Origin: Promethearchaeota archaeon
GTDB taxonomy: Archaea > Asgardarchaeota > Lokiarchaeia > Sigyniarchaeales > Promethearchaeaceae
Direction of reading: 5' to 3'
DNA: 32,000 bases
Assembly: GCA_016933055.1 (NCBI GenBank)
Contig: JAFGBS010000009.1
Span: 480,001-512,000, forward strand
Shown: piece after piece, positions 13,669 to 22,005 of the stretch
How the letters are laid out: each line of letters begins with the position of its first letter
How positions within the stretch are numbered: the first letter of the stretch is position 1
Program-made: the position numbers and the translations under genes
The notes under the pieces: generated by a model
Told to the model about the DNA's origin: nothing
Database searches by the model: none
What the model saw: the letters and a program-made list of their open reading frames with translations, nothing else

Positions 13669-14544
13669 ATGAAGAGATGGATAAAAAAAAATCAATTACT
13701 TTTGTACCTTTTCCTCACTTATCTGATAGCATGTATTGCAACGATTCTTCATAATGTATTCGGCATTCATTTCATCTCACAATCCAATCTAACGTTCCCT
13801 GCTGTAATTTTGTGGGTCTTCTATATTTTTAGCCCTACCATCTCAGGATTCTTAATCACAACATTTGTAGAGGGAAAAAAAGGCATCCTTAACGTTATCC
13901 GAGGATATACCATAGTAAAAGTAAATTGGTTTTGGTATTTTGGAGCTTTAATTCTCTTATTGGCACCTTTATCTATAGGATTTATTTTTTTCATTCTAGA
14001 AAAATCTCCCGGTCCAAGTGATAGCATTTCTGTTGGAAATATATTCTACTTAATTGGATTTGGATTATTATCGGGACCTATTTCAGAGGAGGGAGGATGG
14101 AGAGGTTTTATGCTTCCTAAGTTAGAATCGAAACACAATGCTTCGGTCTCCAGCCTAATACTTGGATTTACGTGGTATGTTTGGCATATTCCTCTTTATT
14201 TCATCGAAGGAACAAGTCAATATGAATCCTTGCAATATGGTATAGTGTCTTCCATAGTCTCAATTAGCATTTATTGGGTTTTAGTAATGGTTATTGCCCA
14301 AATACTAACCTTTTTGTACAATAATTCCCGTGGGAGTTTAATTATTACAATTCTAGCACATTTTTGCTTTAATTTTAGCAGCACTCTAATTTTAAATTCC
14401 GGACTCGGGTTGTTAGAACCGATGACATTCAACATCGTGGGTAGTATATTAGCAATAGCATATTTGGTACTGATATATGCTGGTTTTGGGTATCAGAACA
14501 TGTCCCGCAAAGATAAAGATAAATTACCGTTTAATCGGTCTTAA
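13669..14544 (+). CDS. CPBP/Abi family intramembrane metalloprotease (type II CAAX protease-like)
   Basis: EEGGWRG, W..WHIP and HFCFN motifs in a polytopic membrane protein. Confidence 0.92.
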   Translation: MKRWIKKNQLLLYLFLTYLIACIATILHNVFGIHFISQSNLTFPAVILWVFYIFSPTISGFLITTFVEGKKGILNVIRGYTIVKVNWFWYFGALILLLAPLSIGFIFFILEKSPGPSDSISVGNIFYLIGFGLLSGPISEEGGWRGFMLPKLESKHNASVSSLILGFTWYVWHIPLYFIEGTSQYESLQYGIVSSIVSISIYWVLVMVIAQILTFLYNNSRGSLIITILAHFCFNFSSTLILNSGLGLLEPMTFNIVGSILAIAYLVLIYAGFGYQNMSRKDKDKLPFNRS

Positions 14545-14943: not shown

Positions 14944-17916
14944 TTATGATGTTTTAATTGGATCTTCTTGAAGATTATCAATGTTAGTTTTTGATTGTAA
15001 TTTGGATAGAACTTTTCTCAGATATTTACCAGTATATGAACGGTCATTGACCGCTATTTCTTCTGGTGTTCCGGAGGCAATGATCTCCCCCCCGTTTTCA
15101 CCACCTTCTGGTCCCAAGTCAATGATATAATCCGCACTTTTAATTATGTCCAAATTATGTTCAATTACAACTACTGAATTGCCTTGATCGACTAATCGTT
15201 GAAGAGCTTTTATCAGAATCTTTACATCATGGAAATGTAAACCTGTAGTGGGTTCATCCAGCAAGAAAAGCGTATTTCCTGTGGAGCGTTTAGATAATTC
15301 TCTGGATAATTTCATTCTCTGTGCTTCTCCACCACTTAACGTAGTGGAGCTCTGTCCCAACTCAATATAGCCCAAACCGACATCAACAACGGTTTGTAAT
15401 ATTTCGTTTATCTTTTGATTATTTTCGAAGAATTCTAATGCTTGGTTGTGGGTCATTCGCAAAACTTCGTAGATATTTTTACCTTTATATTTCACTTCTA
15501 AAGTTTCTTCATTATATCTTTGCCCTTGACACACATCACATTTCACGTACACATCAGGGAGGAAATGCATTTCAATAAGGTTATACCCCAAACCACCACA
15601 TTTTTCACACCTTCCCGCTTTTGTATTAAACGAAAAACGACCTTTCTCATATCCTCGAATCTTTGCTTCTTCAGTTTTTGCAAAAGTGTCTCGTATATAA
15701 TCGAAAGCTTTTGTATATGTGGCTGGTACTGATTTAGGAGTTCTCCCAATCGGGCTCTGATCAATGTTAATTATTTTATCAATATATTCCAATCCTTCGA
15801 TAGTGTCATATTTTATGTGCAATCCTTTCTTCTTGCGGCGTAAAGATTCTTCTACTGCGTTGAGGAGAACTTCCTGAACTAATGATGATTTACCAGCACC
15901 CGAAACGCCCGTTACACATGTAAACACTCCTAGTGGAATCTCTGCAGTAACACTTTTCAGATTATTTTCCCGAGCACCACTGATACGGATTCTAGATTCA
16001 GAGAGAGGCCTTCGAGATTTAGGAAGGCATATTTTCTCTTTTCCGGATAAGTATCTGCCTGTGATAGAACGTGGATTATTCATAACTGTTTCTAAATTAC
16101 CCGTTTCTACGATTTCTCCTCCTTTTTCCCCTCCAAATGGTCCGATATCCACAATGAAATCCGCAGCGCGTATCACATCTTCATCATGTTCCACAATTAG
16201 AACGGTATTTCCTCGCTTCTTTAACTCAATAAGCATATTGATCAACTTAGACTTATCTCGGGGATGCAGGCCTATCGTAGGTTCATCAAGTACATAAAGT
16301 ACTCCCACAAGATTTGATCCAATTTGTGTAGCTAATCGAATGCGCTCACTTTCTCCACCTGAGAGAGTACGAGCCACACGGTCCAATGAAATATAATCTA
16401 ATCCAACATTTTCTAGGAAAAAATACCTCGAATGAATTTCTTTAAGGATTTCCTTAGCAATCGTTCGTTCCCGTTTGGATAATTTTACACAGTTGAACCA
16501 ACGAATTGCTTCGGATACATACATCCGTGATACTTCCCATATGTTTTTGTCATTGATAGTTACAGCAAGACTAACTGGTTTTAATCGTTTTCCTTTACAT
16601 GCGCTGCATTCGTATTCACGCATGAATTGTTCATACCACTCTCGCATCCCTTGGGATTTTGTTCTCAAGTATCTATTCTGAAGGATGGTAATAATACCTT
16701 TAAACGGACGCTTATACCTGACACTAAAATGTACTTCATCTTCGTCCTCTTCTTCTTCATTCTGTGAATCATATCCTCCATTACGTTCAAAATTAAAGGA
16801 AATTTTTTCTTTTCCCGTTCCATATAGGAATTTATTCCAAAATTCATCAGGAAGATCATCAATGGATTGAGTAATGTCCACATTGTAATATTCTGCAAGA
16901 GCTTCGATGGTTTTCCAACTCCAACTATTAATTGAACCAAACCCTCCCACTCGGGTCAACCCGCTATCATAAAGATTGACGGATGTATCGGGGAATATTT
17001 TAGCCTCATCAAAATTTAGAACGGTTCCTAAACCTTTGCAAAATTCGCACATTCCGTAAGGAGTGTTGAAGCTGAAGTCCCTAGCTTGCAGTTTTTCATA
17101 CGAAACACCACACTCGGGACAGAAAAAGTGCTCTGAGAATATTTTGGAATCTCCATTTACTATGGAGATTTTTACTAGTCCTTCAGCAAGTTTAAGGGAT
17201 GTTTCGATAGAATTAGCTACACGTGAACGGAATTCATCATCTTCTTCCGTTTTCATAATCAACCGGTCAACAATAACATCAATATCATGTTTGATATTCC
17301 TATCCAAGTTAATAGGTTCCTCTAAAAGGTATTCAATGGCTTCTTTTCCTTGATCTTGAATCATGATCCTTGAATATCCACTTTTCTGCAACTTCAGGAA
17401 TAATTTTTCATAGGTTCCCTTTTTTCCCCGTACCATGGGTGCAAGAATCTTGAATTTTGTTCCGGTGTTAAGAGATTGCAGAATTTCATGGATAATCTCT
17501 TGACTGCTTTTTGGAGTAATTTCTCTTCTACATATAGGACAATGGGGAATTCCGATATTTGCCCATAATAATCTTAAATAATCATAAATTTCGGTAACCG
17601 TACCCACAGTTGAACGTGGGTTTTTTGAGACGGTTTTCTGTTCAATTGCAATAGCAGGAGACAATCCCTCAATATAATCAACATCTGGCTTATCCATTCC
17701 TTCTAAAAACTGGCGTGCATAAGCAGAAAGGGATTGTAAATATCTTCGCTGACCCTCTGCGTAAATAGTATCAATCGCTAAACTAGACTTACCGGAGCCA
17801 CTTAGACCAGTAAATACAACCAATTTATCACGTGGGATTTTCACATCAATATTTTTGAGATTGTGTTGTCGTGCGCCTTTTACAATGATGTATTTGGAAT
17901 TATTGGGATTGGTCAT
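14944..17916 (-). CDS. uvrA: Excinuclease ABC subunit A
   Basis: [20 protein letters not shown], two ABC cassettes ([37 protein letters not shown]) and zinc modules. Confidence 0.98.
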
Positions 17917-18094: not shown

Positions 18095-19555
18095 TTAGAC
18101 ATATATATTTTCCTTGGGATCGGGGGGGTCTGTATCTTCAATAGGGAATGTATCTTCTTCCAAGATTTGGGTTAATTCCCATTCCCGTTCGTTTCCTTCT
18201 CGATCAAATACTCTCAGGAGATCTAAGGAACTTTCCCCTTTGGTCGATCCAAGAATCATATTAATATAGTACATGTTGAAAGTTTGACGATCTTGATCGG
18301 AGGGAATTGGGGGACCGAGAGTATGGGAATGAATGAATCCTACAATACTCGTATCCATAAAAGGAATTTGGTCTTTATAATATCCGGTTGCAAAAGGAGT
18401 AGAAAAATATCTTGCTGGGAGCCGGAGACGCCATATTACCCATCTATCTAGCTGTACAAAACCACCCATCTCGTTTGGAGCATGTTCCTTGGCCGTTTGT
18501 TTTGCTAAGTTAAGGAACTGCTGAGATATTTGGATTTTTCCAAATCCATAAAATCCTAAACATGCTTTAAGTTCCCTTAGGACTTCTGTTAAGCTATAAG
18601 GTTCACTCTTCAGCCACGTCCGGAGGGAATATAACCTATCAGACAAGGATTGAGTAGATAATTTTTCTACAATAAAAACGGGGAATTCAAATTTTGGAGG
18701 ATCGGGATAATCACTCAAATCCATGAAAACTGCATAATTTTCTCCTAAATCGACGGAATACCTATTTTCATAGTTATCTAATTTCTCAATAGTGAACATA
18801 TTGGACGCTTTCTTAATTTGTTGGGATACGTTGAAGATTTGCTCTTTAATTCTCGTTTTTTTTTGTGCAATTAGTTCTTTCAACCTAGGAGGTGTATATA
18901 ATTCGTCCACTTTTCTTTCAAGTTCGCTATAAGATGGATATTTCCTTATAATTTCCATATCTTTTGGCTCGAGTGTATCAAAAGCATTTATTGCAGTCTT
19001 AAATCGTCCTTTAAATTCTAACAGTAGTGTTCGAGCTAAATCTTGATAGGATTTTATAAATAAACTATTCTCAGGTTCAAGCGTATAAGCTTCTTTATAC
19101 ATATTTAAAGCATGCTCGAAATTTTTTAATTTCTCATACTGGGTTGCTGCGAGATACGTCGCTAGTTGAGCTACTTCGGGATAATTATCGCGCATATACT
19201 CGCATAATTCTACAGCCACACCTGGTCTTTTTATTGAAATAATTATTTCTGCACGCTTTAACAATGCTTCCGCAGGTTCTCCCTCAATTGTATCCAGTTT
19301 TTGATACTGTTCTATTAAAAACCCCTTTATATCTTCCATCATTTTCCCTAAACATTCGTGATTTTCCGAAAGCCGATGCGTGGAACAAAATTTCTTCCCA
19401 CAATATGTGCATTTATTCATATAATTTTGGATTTTGATATTGCAGTAATAACAAAGCTCTAAATTTTCGTAATTATTTGATAATTCCTCGTATAATTTGT
19501 TCTTTTTTTGTTTCCTTATTGTTAAACCCCTCCTATAGAAACATATTAAAAACAA
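18095..19555 (-). CDS. Multidomain AN1 zinc finger / TPR / UEV(E2)-like / JAMM (MPN+) metalloisopeptidase; start is either TTG 19555 or ATA 19519
   Basis: AN1 ligands CYYC..CTYC.KKFCSTHRLSENHEC; TPR-like YEKLKNFEHALNMYKEAYTLEPEN; DYPDPPKFEF...LRTW...LTEVLREL; JAMM PNEMGG...HSHTLGPPIPSDQD. Confidence 0.8.
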   Translation of the reverse strand: MFLICFYRRGLTIRKQKKNKLYEELSNNYENLELCYYCNIKIQNYMNKCTYCGKKFCSTHRLSENHECLGKMMEDIKGFLIEQYQKLDTIEGEPAEALLKRAEIIISIKRPGVAVELCEYMRDNYPEVAQLATYLAATQYEKLKNFEHALNMYKEAYTLEPENSLFIKSYQDLARTLLLEFKGRFKTAINAFDTLEPKDMEIIRKYPSYSELERKVDELYTPPRLKELIAQKKTRIKEQIFNVSQQIKKASNMFTIEKLDNYENRYSVDLGENYAVFMDLSDYPDPPKFEFPVFIVEKLSTQSLSDRLYSLRTWLKSEPYSLTEVLRELKACLGFYGFGKIQISQQFLNLAKQTAKEHAPNEMGGFVQLDRWVIWRLRLPARYFSTPFATGYYKDQIPFMDTSIVGFIHSHTLGPPIPSDQDRQTFNMYYINMILGSTKGESSLDLLRVFDREGNEREWELTQILEEDTFPIEDTDPPDPKENIYV

Positions 19556-19557
19556 TA

Positions 19558-21540
19558 TTATTTTATACTTTGTGCTAGTTCTTTTATTTTATCCCGAAGA
19601 AACGCTGCTTTCTCGAATTCTAAATTATCCGCATACTCTCGCATCAAAGAATCCAATTCATTAAGTAAATCAATCTTGTTTGCTTCTTCTTCAATTCTTT
19701 CCTCAATGGTTTTTTTAAGTGTGCTCTCCGCTTCTTCTTCATCTATAACTTCACGTGAAAGGGATTCTCTTAGTTGTTTTTGGATAGTTTGCGGTGTAAT
19801 ATCATGCTCCCTATTGTATCTAATCTGTTTTGCGCGCCTTCGATTGGTTTCCGCAATTGCTTCCGTAATGGATTTAGTAATTTTATCTGCGTATAAGATT
19901 GCTTTTCCATTTACATTCCGTGAAGCTCGACCAATAGTTTGGATTAGGGAACGTGTATTTCGCAGAAATCCTTCTCTATCCGCATCCAATATAGCAACAA
20001 GGGAAACTTCTGGTAAATCTAATCCTTCTCGTAGCAAATTAATACCCACAACTACTTCAATTTCACCTGAACGTAGTTTTCTCAAGATTTCTGACCGTTC
20101 TACTGTGTCAATATCACTATGAAGATACTTTATTTTTATACCCCGCTCGGCATAGTATTCTGCTATGTTTTCTGCAAGGCGTTTTGTTAATGTGGTTACA
20201 AGAACTCGTTCATTTCGTTGAACCACTTGTCGAATTTCATTTAATAAATCTTCGATTTGATCCTCTGTTGGTCGAATTTCAGTCTGAGGATCTACTAAAC
20301 CGGTGGGACGAATCACTTGATCAGCAATAAGCTTGCTTCTCTCCAATTCCCAATCCCCGGGAGTGGCACTGGTGAAAATAATTTGGTTGATTTTGTTATC
20401 CCATTCAATAAATTTGAGAGGACGATTGTCATACGCTGCCTTTAAACGGAAACCAAAGTCAATAAGATTCTTCTTTCTTGAAATATCTCCTCCTATCATT
20501 CCGTGTACCTGTGGAACTCCTATGTGACTCTCATCCATCACCATTAGATAATCATCGGGAAAATAATCCAAAAGCGTGTAAGGCCTCTCCCCGATCTTCC
20601 TACCATCAAAATAGCGAGAATAATTCTCAATTCCTTTACAAGTCCCAAATTCAAGAATAGTTTCAAGATCATAGTTCGTTCTCTGCTCTAATCGTTGAGC
20701 TTCCGCATATTTTCCTTGTTTTTTGAACTCTTCCACCTCATCGTTGAGATCTTCTCGAATTTGTCTTATAATAGCTTCCAACACTTCAAAATTTGTAACA
20801 TATTCACTAGCTGGAAACAGAAATATTTCATTCACATTTCGTATTGTTTTTCCCGTATATGGATTTACTTCATGAATATCTTCCACCTCATCGCCAAAAT
20901 AAAAGAGCTTGTACCCTAAATTCATCTCTGCGGAGTAGATTATCACAGTATCACCTTTGACTCTGAATAGTCCTGGGCGTATCTCGATATCGTTTCGAGC
21001 ATAAGAGATTTTAACCAATTTTTGGGAAAGATCCCGAATACTCAACGTTTGTCCTTTTTTTATTTTTATAATGCTCTCCTTACGGAAATTTGGGTCACCA
21101 GAAGCGAATATACAGGAAACTGAGGCAATAACTATTACATCACGCCGAGTTAATAATGAACTCATAGCCTTTAAACGATACCAACGGATCTGTTCATTGA
21201 TATCCAGATCTTTTTCAATATATAGACCTTTTTCAGGTACATATGCTTCCGGTTGATAATAATCATAGTAAGAGATGAAATATTCTACTGCATTGTCTGG
21301 AAAAAGTTCCTTCAACTCTTGATACAATTGTGCAGCTAGTGTTTTATTTGGAGCCATCACAATAGTTGGACGTTGCACTTTTTCGATGACTTTCGCAATA
21401 CTAAAAGTTTTACCCGTTCCAGTCGCTCCAAGTAAAGTTATGTATTTATCTCTACGATTGAGAGCATTCACAATATCTTGAATTGCTGTAGGTTGGTCCC
21501 CTTTTGGCATATAGTCAGATTTAACCCTAAACTCGTCCAT
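19558..21540 (-). CDS. uvrB: Excinuclease ABC subunit B
   Basis: GATGTGKT, beta-hairpin YYDYYQPEAY, MDESH, GINLLREGLDLPEV, C-terminal UVR domain LEFEKAAFLRDKI; GGTGA SD. Confidence 0.98.
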   Translation of the reverse strand: MDEFRVKSDYMPKGDQPTAIQDIVNALNRRDKYITLLGATGTGKTFSIAKVIEKVQRPTIVMAPNKTLAAQLYQELKELFPDNAVEYFISYYDYYQPEAYVPEKGLYIEKDLDINEQIRWYRLKAMSSLLTRRDVIVIASVSCIFASGDPNFRKESIIKIKKGQTLSIRDLSQKLVKISYARNDIEIRPGLFRVKGDTVIIYSAEMNLGYKLFYFGDEVEDIHEVNPYTGKTIRNVNEIFLFPASEYVTNFEVLEAIIRQIREDLNDEVEEFKKQGKYAEAQRLEQRTNYDLETILEFGTCKGIENYSRYFDGRKIGERPYTLLDYFPDDYLMVMDESHIGVPQVHGMIGGDISRKKNLIDFGFRLKAAYDNRPLKFIEWDNKINQIIFTSATPGDWELERSKLIADQVIRPTGLVDPQTEIRPTEDQIEDLLNEIRQVVQRNERVLVTTLTKRLAENIAEYYAERGIKIKYLHSDIDTVERSEILRKLRSGEIEVVVGINLLREGLDLPEVSLVAILDADREGFLRNTRSLIQTIGRASRNVNGKAILYADKITKSITEAIAETNRRRAKQIRYNREHDITPQTIQKQLRESLSREVIDEEEAESTLKKTIEERIEEEANKIDLLNELDSLMREYADNLEFEKAAFLRDKIKELAQSIK

Positions 21541-21774: not shown

Positions 21775-22005
21775 TTATGAATTTAGATTATCCTCTAATT
21801 TATCGGGAGGTAATTCAAAATCCAGGAGCTTAATGTTTTGAAGTTCTTTTTCAAGAAATTCTTCTATTGCTTTTCTGATTCCGTCTGAACGAGAACTAAT
21901 TATTCCCATTTCTTGTAATTTAGCTAAATTAGTACAATATATTTCGGGTAGAGCAATAGTGATGTTTTGTAGTTTCGCGTCTTCTTCTTTCTTCACAGAA
22001 ATCAT
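21775..22005 (-). CDS. Ribbon-helix-helix (CopG/MetJ-like) DNA-binding protein
   Basis: NITIALPE beta-ribbon, then helix-G-x3-SRSDGIRKAIEEFL. Confidence 0.85.
   Translation of the reverse strand: MISVKKEEDAKLQNITIALPEIYCTNLAKLQEMGIISSRSDGIRKAIEEFLEKELQNIKLLDFELPPDKLEDNLNS

Follow-up and report, generated by a model that had tools for sequence, protein, structure and literature searches.

A predicted JAMM/MPN+ zinc isopeptidase with AN1, TPR-like and UBC-superfold modules, encoded between uvrB and uvrA in a Lokiarchaeial lineage

Gene and domain architecture

The 32,000-nucleotide (nt) stretch analysed here, referred to as the window, comes from a Promethearchaeota archaeon (GCA_016933055.1, contig JAFGBS010000009.1, positions 480,001 to 512,000 of the forward strand) and carries, between uvrB and uvrA, a gene whose product is best explained as a soluble multi-domain JAMM/MPN+ zinc isopeptidase, predicted for a Lokiarchaeial lineage. 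From the N-terminus to the C-terminus, the protein comprises an AN1 finger, TPR-like repeats, a linker, a cysteine-less UBC-fold domain, a minimal JAB domain with a full active site, and an acidic tail with a hydrophobic-tyrosine-X (HbYX) ending. The original prediction, made from the letters of the DNA, had described a four-module protein at 18095-19555. Translation shows that the four-module frame stays open for 486 codons from a TTG on the minus strand, and the search and modelling tools support this architecture. The HbYX tail, an inactive MPN-minus paralogue, the stand-alone occurrence of the UBC-like and JAB pair, and the lineage-specific uvr linkage go beyond that prediction. The features of the gene are as follows (aa, amino acid positions counted from TTG).

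18095..19555, minus strand: whole open reading frame (ORF), 486 codons counted from TTG 19555, stop codon at 18095-18097
19527..19534, minus strand: Shine-Dalgarno-like AGGAGGGG, 7 nt 5' of the in-frame ATA at 19517-19519
19349..19453, minus strand: AN1-type zinc finger, aa 35-69, eight zinc ligands, Pfam zf-AN1
18977..19315, minus strand: TPR-like helical repeats, about aa 81-193, from TPR profiles and NCBIfam MamA
18830..18976, minus strand: linker, aa 194-242, conserved in the alignment, with no Pfam family match
18542..18829, minus strand: non-catalytic UBC-superfold domain (E2/UEV/RWD-like), aa 243-338, from the model, structural matches and hhalign
18161..18541, minus strand: JAB/MPN+ metalloprotease domain, aa 339-465, from Prok-JAB and the Foldseek match to AF2198 (1oi0)
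18098..18160, minus strand: disordered acidic tail, aa 466-486, ending I484-Y485-V486 (nt 18098-18106)

JAB/MPN+ metalloprotease domain

The metalloprotease site, E...H-x-H-x7-S-x2-D, is complete in the translation (E362, H409-S-H411, S419 and D422), as had been claimed from the sequence, and all five residues are invariant or nearly so among 17 relatives. Pfam Prok-JAB (PF14464) matches aa 354-438 with 31.5 bits against a cut-off of 25. NCBIfam gives a weak desampylase match over the JAB motif, and Pyrococcus JAMM1 aligns to the domain. The top Foldseek match is AF2198 (1oi0; E 4.5e-7, TM 0.85 by target), and the best matches also include the Caldiarchaeum Rpn11-homologue with ubiquitin, PfJAMM1 with SAMP2, Rpn11, BRCC36, CSN5, and AMSH. 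A total of 62 matches in the Protein Data Bank (PDB) reach E <= 0.001, and all 50 of those listed are JAB/MPN proteins. Among solved JAB structures, the nearest belong to enzymes that cleave ubiquitin or SAMP, or to minimal archaeal relatives of these. BRCC36 comes 14th or lower, with minimal archaeal JAMMs and Rpn11 above it, and by this structural ranking of the model the domain does not appear to be of the BRCC36 type.

Middle UBC-superfold domain

The middle domain was examined in AlphaFold models of aa 236-486 (predicted local distance difference test, pLDDT, 86; predicted template modelling score, pTM, 0.81) and aa 236-340 (pLDDT 90). It is modelled as a helix, four strands and then further helices, with a YPxxP loop between strands 3 and 4. 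In this loop (Y283-P284-D-P-P287), P284 is invariant across 17 sequences, as is W314 elsewhere in the domain, P287 is kept in at least 90%, and Y283 in most. Strand 4 (aa 288-290) passes straight into a helix, and the model therefore has no space for the HPN/Cys loop of an active E2; correspondingly, no HPN motif or conserved loop cysteine occurs in the middle segment across the 17-sequence family alignment. The cysteine C332 sits in the last helix and is present only in the long forms of the family.

An exhaustive structural search gave a best match with Z 8.6 and a root-mean-square deviation of 3.2 A over 93 of 105 residues, and the matches listed were all UBC-fold proteins, including E2s, the E2-variant (UEV) domains of Tsg101, Vps23, and Vps37A, Mms2, BRCC45/BRE, the FANCL central domain, the GCN2 RWD domain, and others. 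BRCC45/BRE (Z 7.8) showed the highest identity among the matches listed, 22-23%. Foldseek against the PDB and Swiss-Prot models recovered mostly the same UBC-fold families at E values of only 0.06-0.3, two RelE chains being the exceptions listed. The individual structural scores are modest, since Z values of 7-8 are common by the search tool's own warning, and UEV and RWD are indistinguishable by fold search, their Z scores being tied within 1 unit. The near-uniform match lists and the YPxxP loop nevertheless make the call of a cysteine-less UBC-superfold domain solid at the level of the model. The weakest claim of the original prediction, a UEV/UBC-like segment at about aa 260-335 lacking HPN motif and catalytic cysteine, is thus borne out by a UBC superfold modelled at high confidence, and AlphaFold with Foldseek, the check proposed with it, returned a UBC-like fold for the middle segment and a JAB fold for the JAB segment. 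Its analogy with BRISC survives in part: BRCC45 is among the best matches of the middle domain, but the JAB domain is not closest to BRCC36.

By sequence profile, Pfam and NCBIfam assign the middle domain to no significant family, and a profile search against PDB sequences found nothing significant, the best relevant match being BRCC45 at E 1.8. Faint Pfam BRE matches reach E 0.04 in 2 of 17 members, and the sequence evidence for BRE as a whole (E 0.04 to 1.8) stays below significance. A protein-atlas feature search with the middle domain gave no usable match. The family profile also matches two tandem repeats in a 618-aa protein of the same genome, and hhalign relates the middle domain to a UBC-like repeat of that protein at E 1.2e-11. 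On its other repeats, Pfam reports UQ_con at 29.1 bits (cut-off 27) and a weak RWD match just below passing.

The 618-aa protein (G000:C22, L008:670-2526, minus strand) is of interest in its own right. It combines some four repeats of UBC-like/RWD-like type with a long acidic linker and, at the C-terminus, a Cys/His-rich finger resembling RING/PHD, a layout that recalls FANCL. More than 200 homologues occur in Asgard metagenomes, some titled 'E2 variant' or 'ubiquitin-protein ligase'.

AN1 finger and TPR-like repeats

All eight AN1 ligands claimed for aa 35-68 are present in the translation (C35, C38, C49, C52, C57, H60, H66 and C68), and their spacing fits C-x2-C-x(9-12)-C-x(1-2)-C-x4-C-x2-H-x5-H-x-C. 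Pfam zf-AN1 (PF01428) matches aa 35-69 with 32.5 bits and E 9e-8, above the gathering cut-off of 27.9, and the same residues align with the ligands of solved AN1 fingers, including yeast Cuz1 (5ij4). The TPR-like helices, originally placed at about aa 95-163, fare less evenly. The window protein itself stays below the Pfam cut-off over aa 115-165 (best TPR_14, 21 bits against 23.5), but the aligned region of the orthologue P0010 passes with TPR_1 at 39.2 bits against 27.8. An NCBIfam MamA-type TPR match covers aa 81-193 at E 1.5e-5, and a faint MIT match appears in the window protein at Pfam E 0.1.

Stand-alone AN1 proteins of about 170 aa in related genomes suggested a Rosetta-stone argument, which was set aside: in the three genomes compared, they lie on contigs separate from the JAB genes. 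Their helical part is not clearly equivalent to the TPR region of the window protein. A 336-aa protein with an N-terminal AN1 finger and several hydrophobic, membrane-like segments adjoins one distant long-form orthologue (L021:7906-8916, minus strand).

Translation start

The AN1 finger lies inside the ORF with either of two starts, TTG 19555 or ATA 19519, of which ATA, giving 474 aa, is probably the true one. In all five close genomes, GGAGG(G) stands 7-11 nt 5' of an in-frame isoleucine codon (ATA or ATC), which begins a conserved I-R-K-Q-K-K-N-K stretch. The codon register of GGAGG(G) varies, reading E-E-G in some genomes and R-R-G in the window, and its conservation is therefore at the nucleotide rather than the amino-acid level. 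In the relative L002, a stop codon abuts the motif, so that no start can lie further upstream there. The NCBI start call for the L001 orthologue is ATT.

In the public annotation of this genome, the product is 414 aa long, starts at M73, and leaves the finger out, which raises the alternative that the finger is untranslated and the upstream frame a relic. Consistent with such a start, none of the five close genomes has an ATG 5' of the finger, and TTG 19555 would add an odd hydrophobic leader. Against it, the open frame and 8/8 zinc ligands are kept in five genomes at about 60% overall identity, distant orthologues have an ATG or GTG start immediately 5' of the finger, and the conserved GGAGG(G) and isoleucine codon, a nucleotide-level signal in differing registers, argues that the finger is translated. 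A start at M73 is accordingly judged highly improbable.

C-terminal HbYX tail

The long forms carry about 20-30 extra residues after the JAB domain, mostly at low model confidence; in the window protein, most of the tail (aa 468-477 and 483-486) has pLDDT values under 50. Tail charge differs between clades, being acidic among the close relatives and basic in those of P0010 and P0011, and yet all 11 long forms, across three subclades with otherwise unlike tails, end in HbYX (IYV, IYL, YYL, FYL, LYV or MYT). No such ending occurs in the 44 short forms, comprising 31 short MPN+ and 13 MPN-minus relatives. The background frequency in the genome is 1.5% (43 of 2820 ORFs of at least 120 aa). Nine of these 43 were checked, and they include PAN (NLYS), Cdc48 (SAYT), which has CDC48_N and two AAA domains, and a PAC2-family protein (NIYL).

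In archaeal PAN, Cdc48, AMA, and PbaB, the HbYX tail docks on the 20S proteasome (PMC3493965, PMC3605417). The ending conserved among the long-form orthologues is likewise a predicted 20S-docking motif, as judged from sequence. Neither 'JAMM' nor 'deubiquitin' appears in the ProEnd survey of HbYX proteins. For the distant orthologue P0011, the gene 99 nt upstream encodes a Cdc48-like double-AAA protein ending in RLYS.

Family distribution and inactive paralogue

Close homologues, about 60% identical, numbered only eight in a word-indexed search, and every one whose source is named comes from Promethearchaeota. An exhaustive search added two distant full-length relatives, P0010 (34% identity) and P0011, as well as a set of roughly 220-aa proteins whose alignment covers aa 244-465, that is, the middle segment and the JAB domain. 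Pfam recognises AN1, TPR, and JAB in P0010 and P0011, and JAB alone in the short proteins. The nearly invariant columns of the 17 sequences are the YPxxP prolines, one tryptophan, and the JAMM residues.

A search of Asgard genomes for the architecture, as had been proposed, found its two parts very differently distributed. Among 400 genomes sampled across the phylum, 169 match the UBC-like and JAB profile, mostly in open frames of about 225 aa and nearly all in the order of the window's organism (family f1 12/13, f2 1/1, f3 128/135, f4 4/4), and the AN1-TPR long form was seen only in the window's genome. The long form is rare and the UBC-like and JAB pair is a widespread stand-alone unit. A 508-aa open frame in genome G280 was considered as a long form and not counted, as it has no recognisable N-terminal domain. 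Of 2.3 million AlphaFold DB fold clusters, a single one covers both the UBC-like and the JAB domain, that of a 221-aa short form; it is unnamed in the cluster list, and its UniRef title is JAB domain-containing protein. The literature search found no description of this architecture, nor of a UEV/RWD-JAB fusion or FANCL in Asgard archaea; for these organisms, only general statements mention E2s, a Uev-like homologue, and an RWD-like domain (PMC6601020). Within the reach of the searchable literature and the structure clusters, the architecture, which the original prediction had not recognised, is undescribed.

The short form gives little guidance from its surroundings. The neighbourhoods of 20 short-form genes across genera hold no conserved partner, with aconitase, TatD, and M32 peptidase among the neighbours, and guilt by association therefore fails for the short form. 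In genus g6 only, a short active UBC-like and JAB gene overlaps the stop of a TtuA-type tRNA thiolation gene (L023:500-1504, L059:4676-5677); enzymes of the TtuA family use ubiquitin-like sulfur carriers.

A second copy with a lower score is found in many genomes, and in all 13 collected the catalytic Glu has become Lys and HSH has become ISR. The residues around the dead site (HPxK, GTFISRPxGxL) are invariant in these 13 MPN-minus copies, which therefore represent a conserved pseudoenzyme rather than a decaying gene. The paralogue in the window's genome is a 226-aa protein with the same UBC-like domain (G000:C2:257807-258478; L007:1498-2175, plus strand), and no short active copy was detected in this genome, which is 91% complete. 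A maximum-likelihood tree separates the long forms from the others by a branch with 100/100 support, and in it the MPN-minus forms make up one group (100/100) nested with short active f3 forms.

Eukaryotic JAMM enzymes work as MPN+/MPN-minus pairs. The long form might accordingly pair with the MPN-minus paralogue in a BRISC-like ubiquitin-editing module, apart from both proteasome and repair, in which the UBC-like domains would be dimerisation or E2/E3-docking scaffolds of RWD-like type and the AN1-TPR part would recruit substrates. The conserved inactive paralogue with the same UBC-like domain, here and in many Lokiarchaeia, its single tree group, the BRCC45 match of the middle domain, and the repetition of this domain type in the 618-aa RING-like protein all fit such a module. 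Pairing is not obligatory, however, as the active short form occurs without any MPN-minus copy, at the threshold used, in closed genomes of the same family; moreover, the JAB domain is structurally nearer to minimal archaeal JAMMs than to BRCC36, and the HbYX tail specific to the long form would be left unexplained. A complex prediction for the UBC-like and JAB part of the long form with the paralogue scored 0.00, which is uninformative either way. We consider a module of this kind unlikely.

Genomic context between uvrB and uvrA

The gene is flanked on its own strand by two nucleotide excision repair genes.

19558..21540, minus strand: uvrB, directly upstream, with its stop 2 nt before TTG
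14944..17916, minus strand: uvrA, 178 nt downstream

The distance from the uvrB stop is 2 nt with the TTG start or 38 nt with the ATA start. The order uvrB-X-uvrA, on one strand and with short gaps, recurs in five contigs (the window, L001, L002, L079 and L080), where the UvrB proteins of the relatives are 77-86% and the UvrA proteins 78-91% identical to those of the window. In other genera of the family, including loci L082-L092, uvrA follows uvrB directly at about 0.15-0.35 kb and the JAB gene is absent wherever the downstream sequence is covered. It follows that a single shallow lineage gained the gene by insertion into an ancestral uvrBA pair, and this position makes transcription with the excision-repair genes probable; from the spacing, co-transcription with uvrB and uvrA is likely in this lineage. 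The uvrC gene lies on another contig of the genome.

This placement suggests an enzyme dedicated to repair, in which the JAB domain would work with UvrA and UvrB, removing ubiquitin or ubiquitin-like marks from damage-bound or stalled proteins or trimming DNA-protein crosslinks, and in that case the AN1-TPR part would bind Uvr proteins or chromatin. The close same-strand position in all five contigs, the retention of the insertion into the ancestral pair, and weak RadC-like JAB matches given by relatives of the JAB domain speak for this possibility. Several observations speak against it. The linkage is confined to one shallow clade, with no uvr genes on L021 and L022, the two distant long-form contigs whose DNA was analysed, and all other genera of the family keep uvrB followed by uvrA without the JAB gene. 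Pfam detects no DNA-binding domain in the window protein, the 178-nt gap 5' of uvrA leaves room for a separate promoter, and JAB enzymes of this type are isopeptidases rather than general proteases. A dedicated repair role is thus rated as improbable, and a functional tie to repair is possible, not required.

Upstream of uvrB lies a 76-aa gene (window 21775-22005, minus strand) in which Pfam finds nothing; its 79-aa counterpart in L001 and L002 gives only faint or weak precomputed RHH_1 matches. A role as a small regulator of the uvr cluster is possible. Several UvrB frames of other genera have about 80 additional residues, the open frames running to about 740 aa. A 291-aa Rce1-like CAAX prenyl endopeptidase family protein is encoded near the uvr cluster (window 13669-14544, plus strand).

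Ubiquitin system of the genome

Asgard archaea have ubiquitin, E1, E2, RING ligases, and proteasomes; they are not known to have a 19S lid, and none is known for this organism. The genome contains an operon for ubiquitin, E1, E2, and JAB on contig C16 (G000:C16:92950-96044), coding for a ubiquitin-like protein (Ubl), an E1-like protein of 417 aa, an E2 of 182 aa, and an Rpn11-like JAB protein of 269 aa. A second Ubl is encoded 8.6 kb beyond the window (G000:C17:520646-520921), and a second E2 is also present. Both Ubl frames end one residue past AG/GG (..TAGM and ..AGGN), and a processing peptidase is therefore needed. Prok-JAB matches in the genome comprise six frames at E <= 0.01, four of them above the cut-off.

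Proposed function

The reading that we prefer, and to which we give somewhat under an even chance, is that of a predicted ubiquitin or ubiquitin-like isopeptidase that is tethered to the proteasome or to its unfoldases and, in this lineage, co-expressed with uvrB and uvrA. The enzyme would cleave ubiquitin or a ubiquitin-like protein from conjugates or precursors. During cleavage, the HbYX tail would hold it at the 20S proteasome, and/or the AN1-TPR part would hold it at the Cdc48/PAN unfoldases, and the UBC-like domain may hold the ubiquitin moiety or a partner. The enzyme would thus do an Rpn11-like job without a lid. The JAMM domain, the AN1 finger, the HbYX tail, and the Cdc48-like neighbour agree in suggesting a putative proteasome or unfoldase role, and the functional idea of the original prediction, a ubiquitin reader, scaffold, and eraser combined in one putative polypeptide, remains plausible.

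A number of points weigh against a tethered isopeptidase. The genome already has the Rpn11-like JAB protein in its ubiquitin operon. Unrelated enzymes of this genome also end in HbYX, so that the motif alone is weak evidence, and the Cdc48-like neighbour is seen for one orthologue only. The link from AN1 to the proteasome is an analogy from eukaryotes, the short-form relatives are without any conserved neighbours, and the uvr placement, confined to close relatives (UvrB 77-86%), may be neutral synteny.

A more elaborate version of the tethered isopeptidase is a lid-less proteasomal deubiquitinase, with its HbYX tail in the 20S alpha ring and its AN1-TPR part on Cdc48/PAN, which would strip ubiquitin as substrates are fed in, would possibly be paired with the MPN-minus paralogue, and would be switched on together with nucleotide excision repair. 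Taken as a whole, this version is doubtful.

Comparison with known systems

The minimal archaeal JAMMs (AF2198, Pyrococcus JAMM1/Haloferax desampylase and the Caldiarchaeum Rpn11-homologue) share the compact JAB fold and the E/HxH/S/D zinc site. They are single-domain proteins of about 110-150 aa, whereas the window protein adds the fused UBC-like domain, the AN1-TPR part, and the HbYX tail. Rpn11, also a structural match, is a JAMM isopeptidase at the proteasome, and the same job is proposed here, with a predicted proteasome association for the window protein. Unlike the window protein, Rpn11 is held by Rpn8 and the lid, not by an HbYX tail of its own, and lacks AN1, TPR, and UBC-like domains. 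In BRISC and BRCA1-A, BRCC36 and BRCC45/BRE likewise combine a JAMM enzyme with cysteine-less UBC-fold (UEV) domains and an MPN-minus partner, but distributed over separate subunits, whereas the active and the inactive paralogue described here each have the UBC-like domain and JAB joined in a single chain.

The AN1 cofactors of the proteasome and Cdc48, yeast Cuz1 and the ZFAND family, have the same AN1 finger but carry UBL, A20 or UIM partner domains and no protease. The HbYX-tailed 20S partners (PAN, archaeal Cdc48, and PbaA/PbaB/PAC2) likewise present a hydrophobic-Tyr-X ending after a flexible tail; among those identified here (PAN, Cdc48, PAC2-family), there is no JAMM protease. AMSH/STAMBP, another structural match, joins a helical N-terminal adaptor (MIT) to a C-terminal JAMM domain that cleaves ubiquitin chains, but its adaptor is different and it is without UBC-like domain, AN1 finger, and HbYX tail.

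Conclusion

The architecture suggests how the removal of ubiquitin could have been linked to protein degradation at a time before the lid of the eukaryotic proteasome, and a JAMM enzyme with an HbYX tail and a eukaryote-type AN1 finger provides a concrete candidate for ubiquitin removal at degradation that can be tested at the bench. The placement between uvrB and uvrA offers a natural handle on whether ubiquitin-like signalling touches DNA repair. The family would place active/inactive MPN pairing, and the pairing of a JAMM enzyme with an E2 variant, in archaea before eukaryotes. If the protein were indeed a lid-less deubiquitinase, the logic of Rpn11-Rpn8 and of BRCC36 with its UEV partner would predate the eukaryotic lid.

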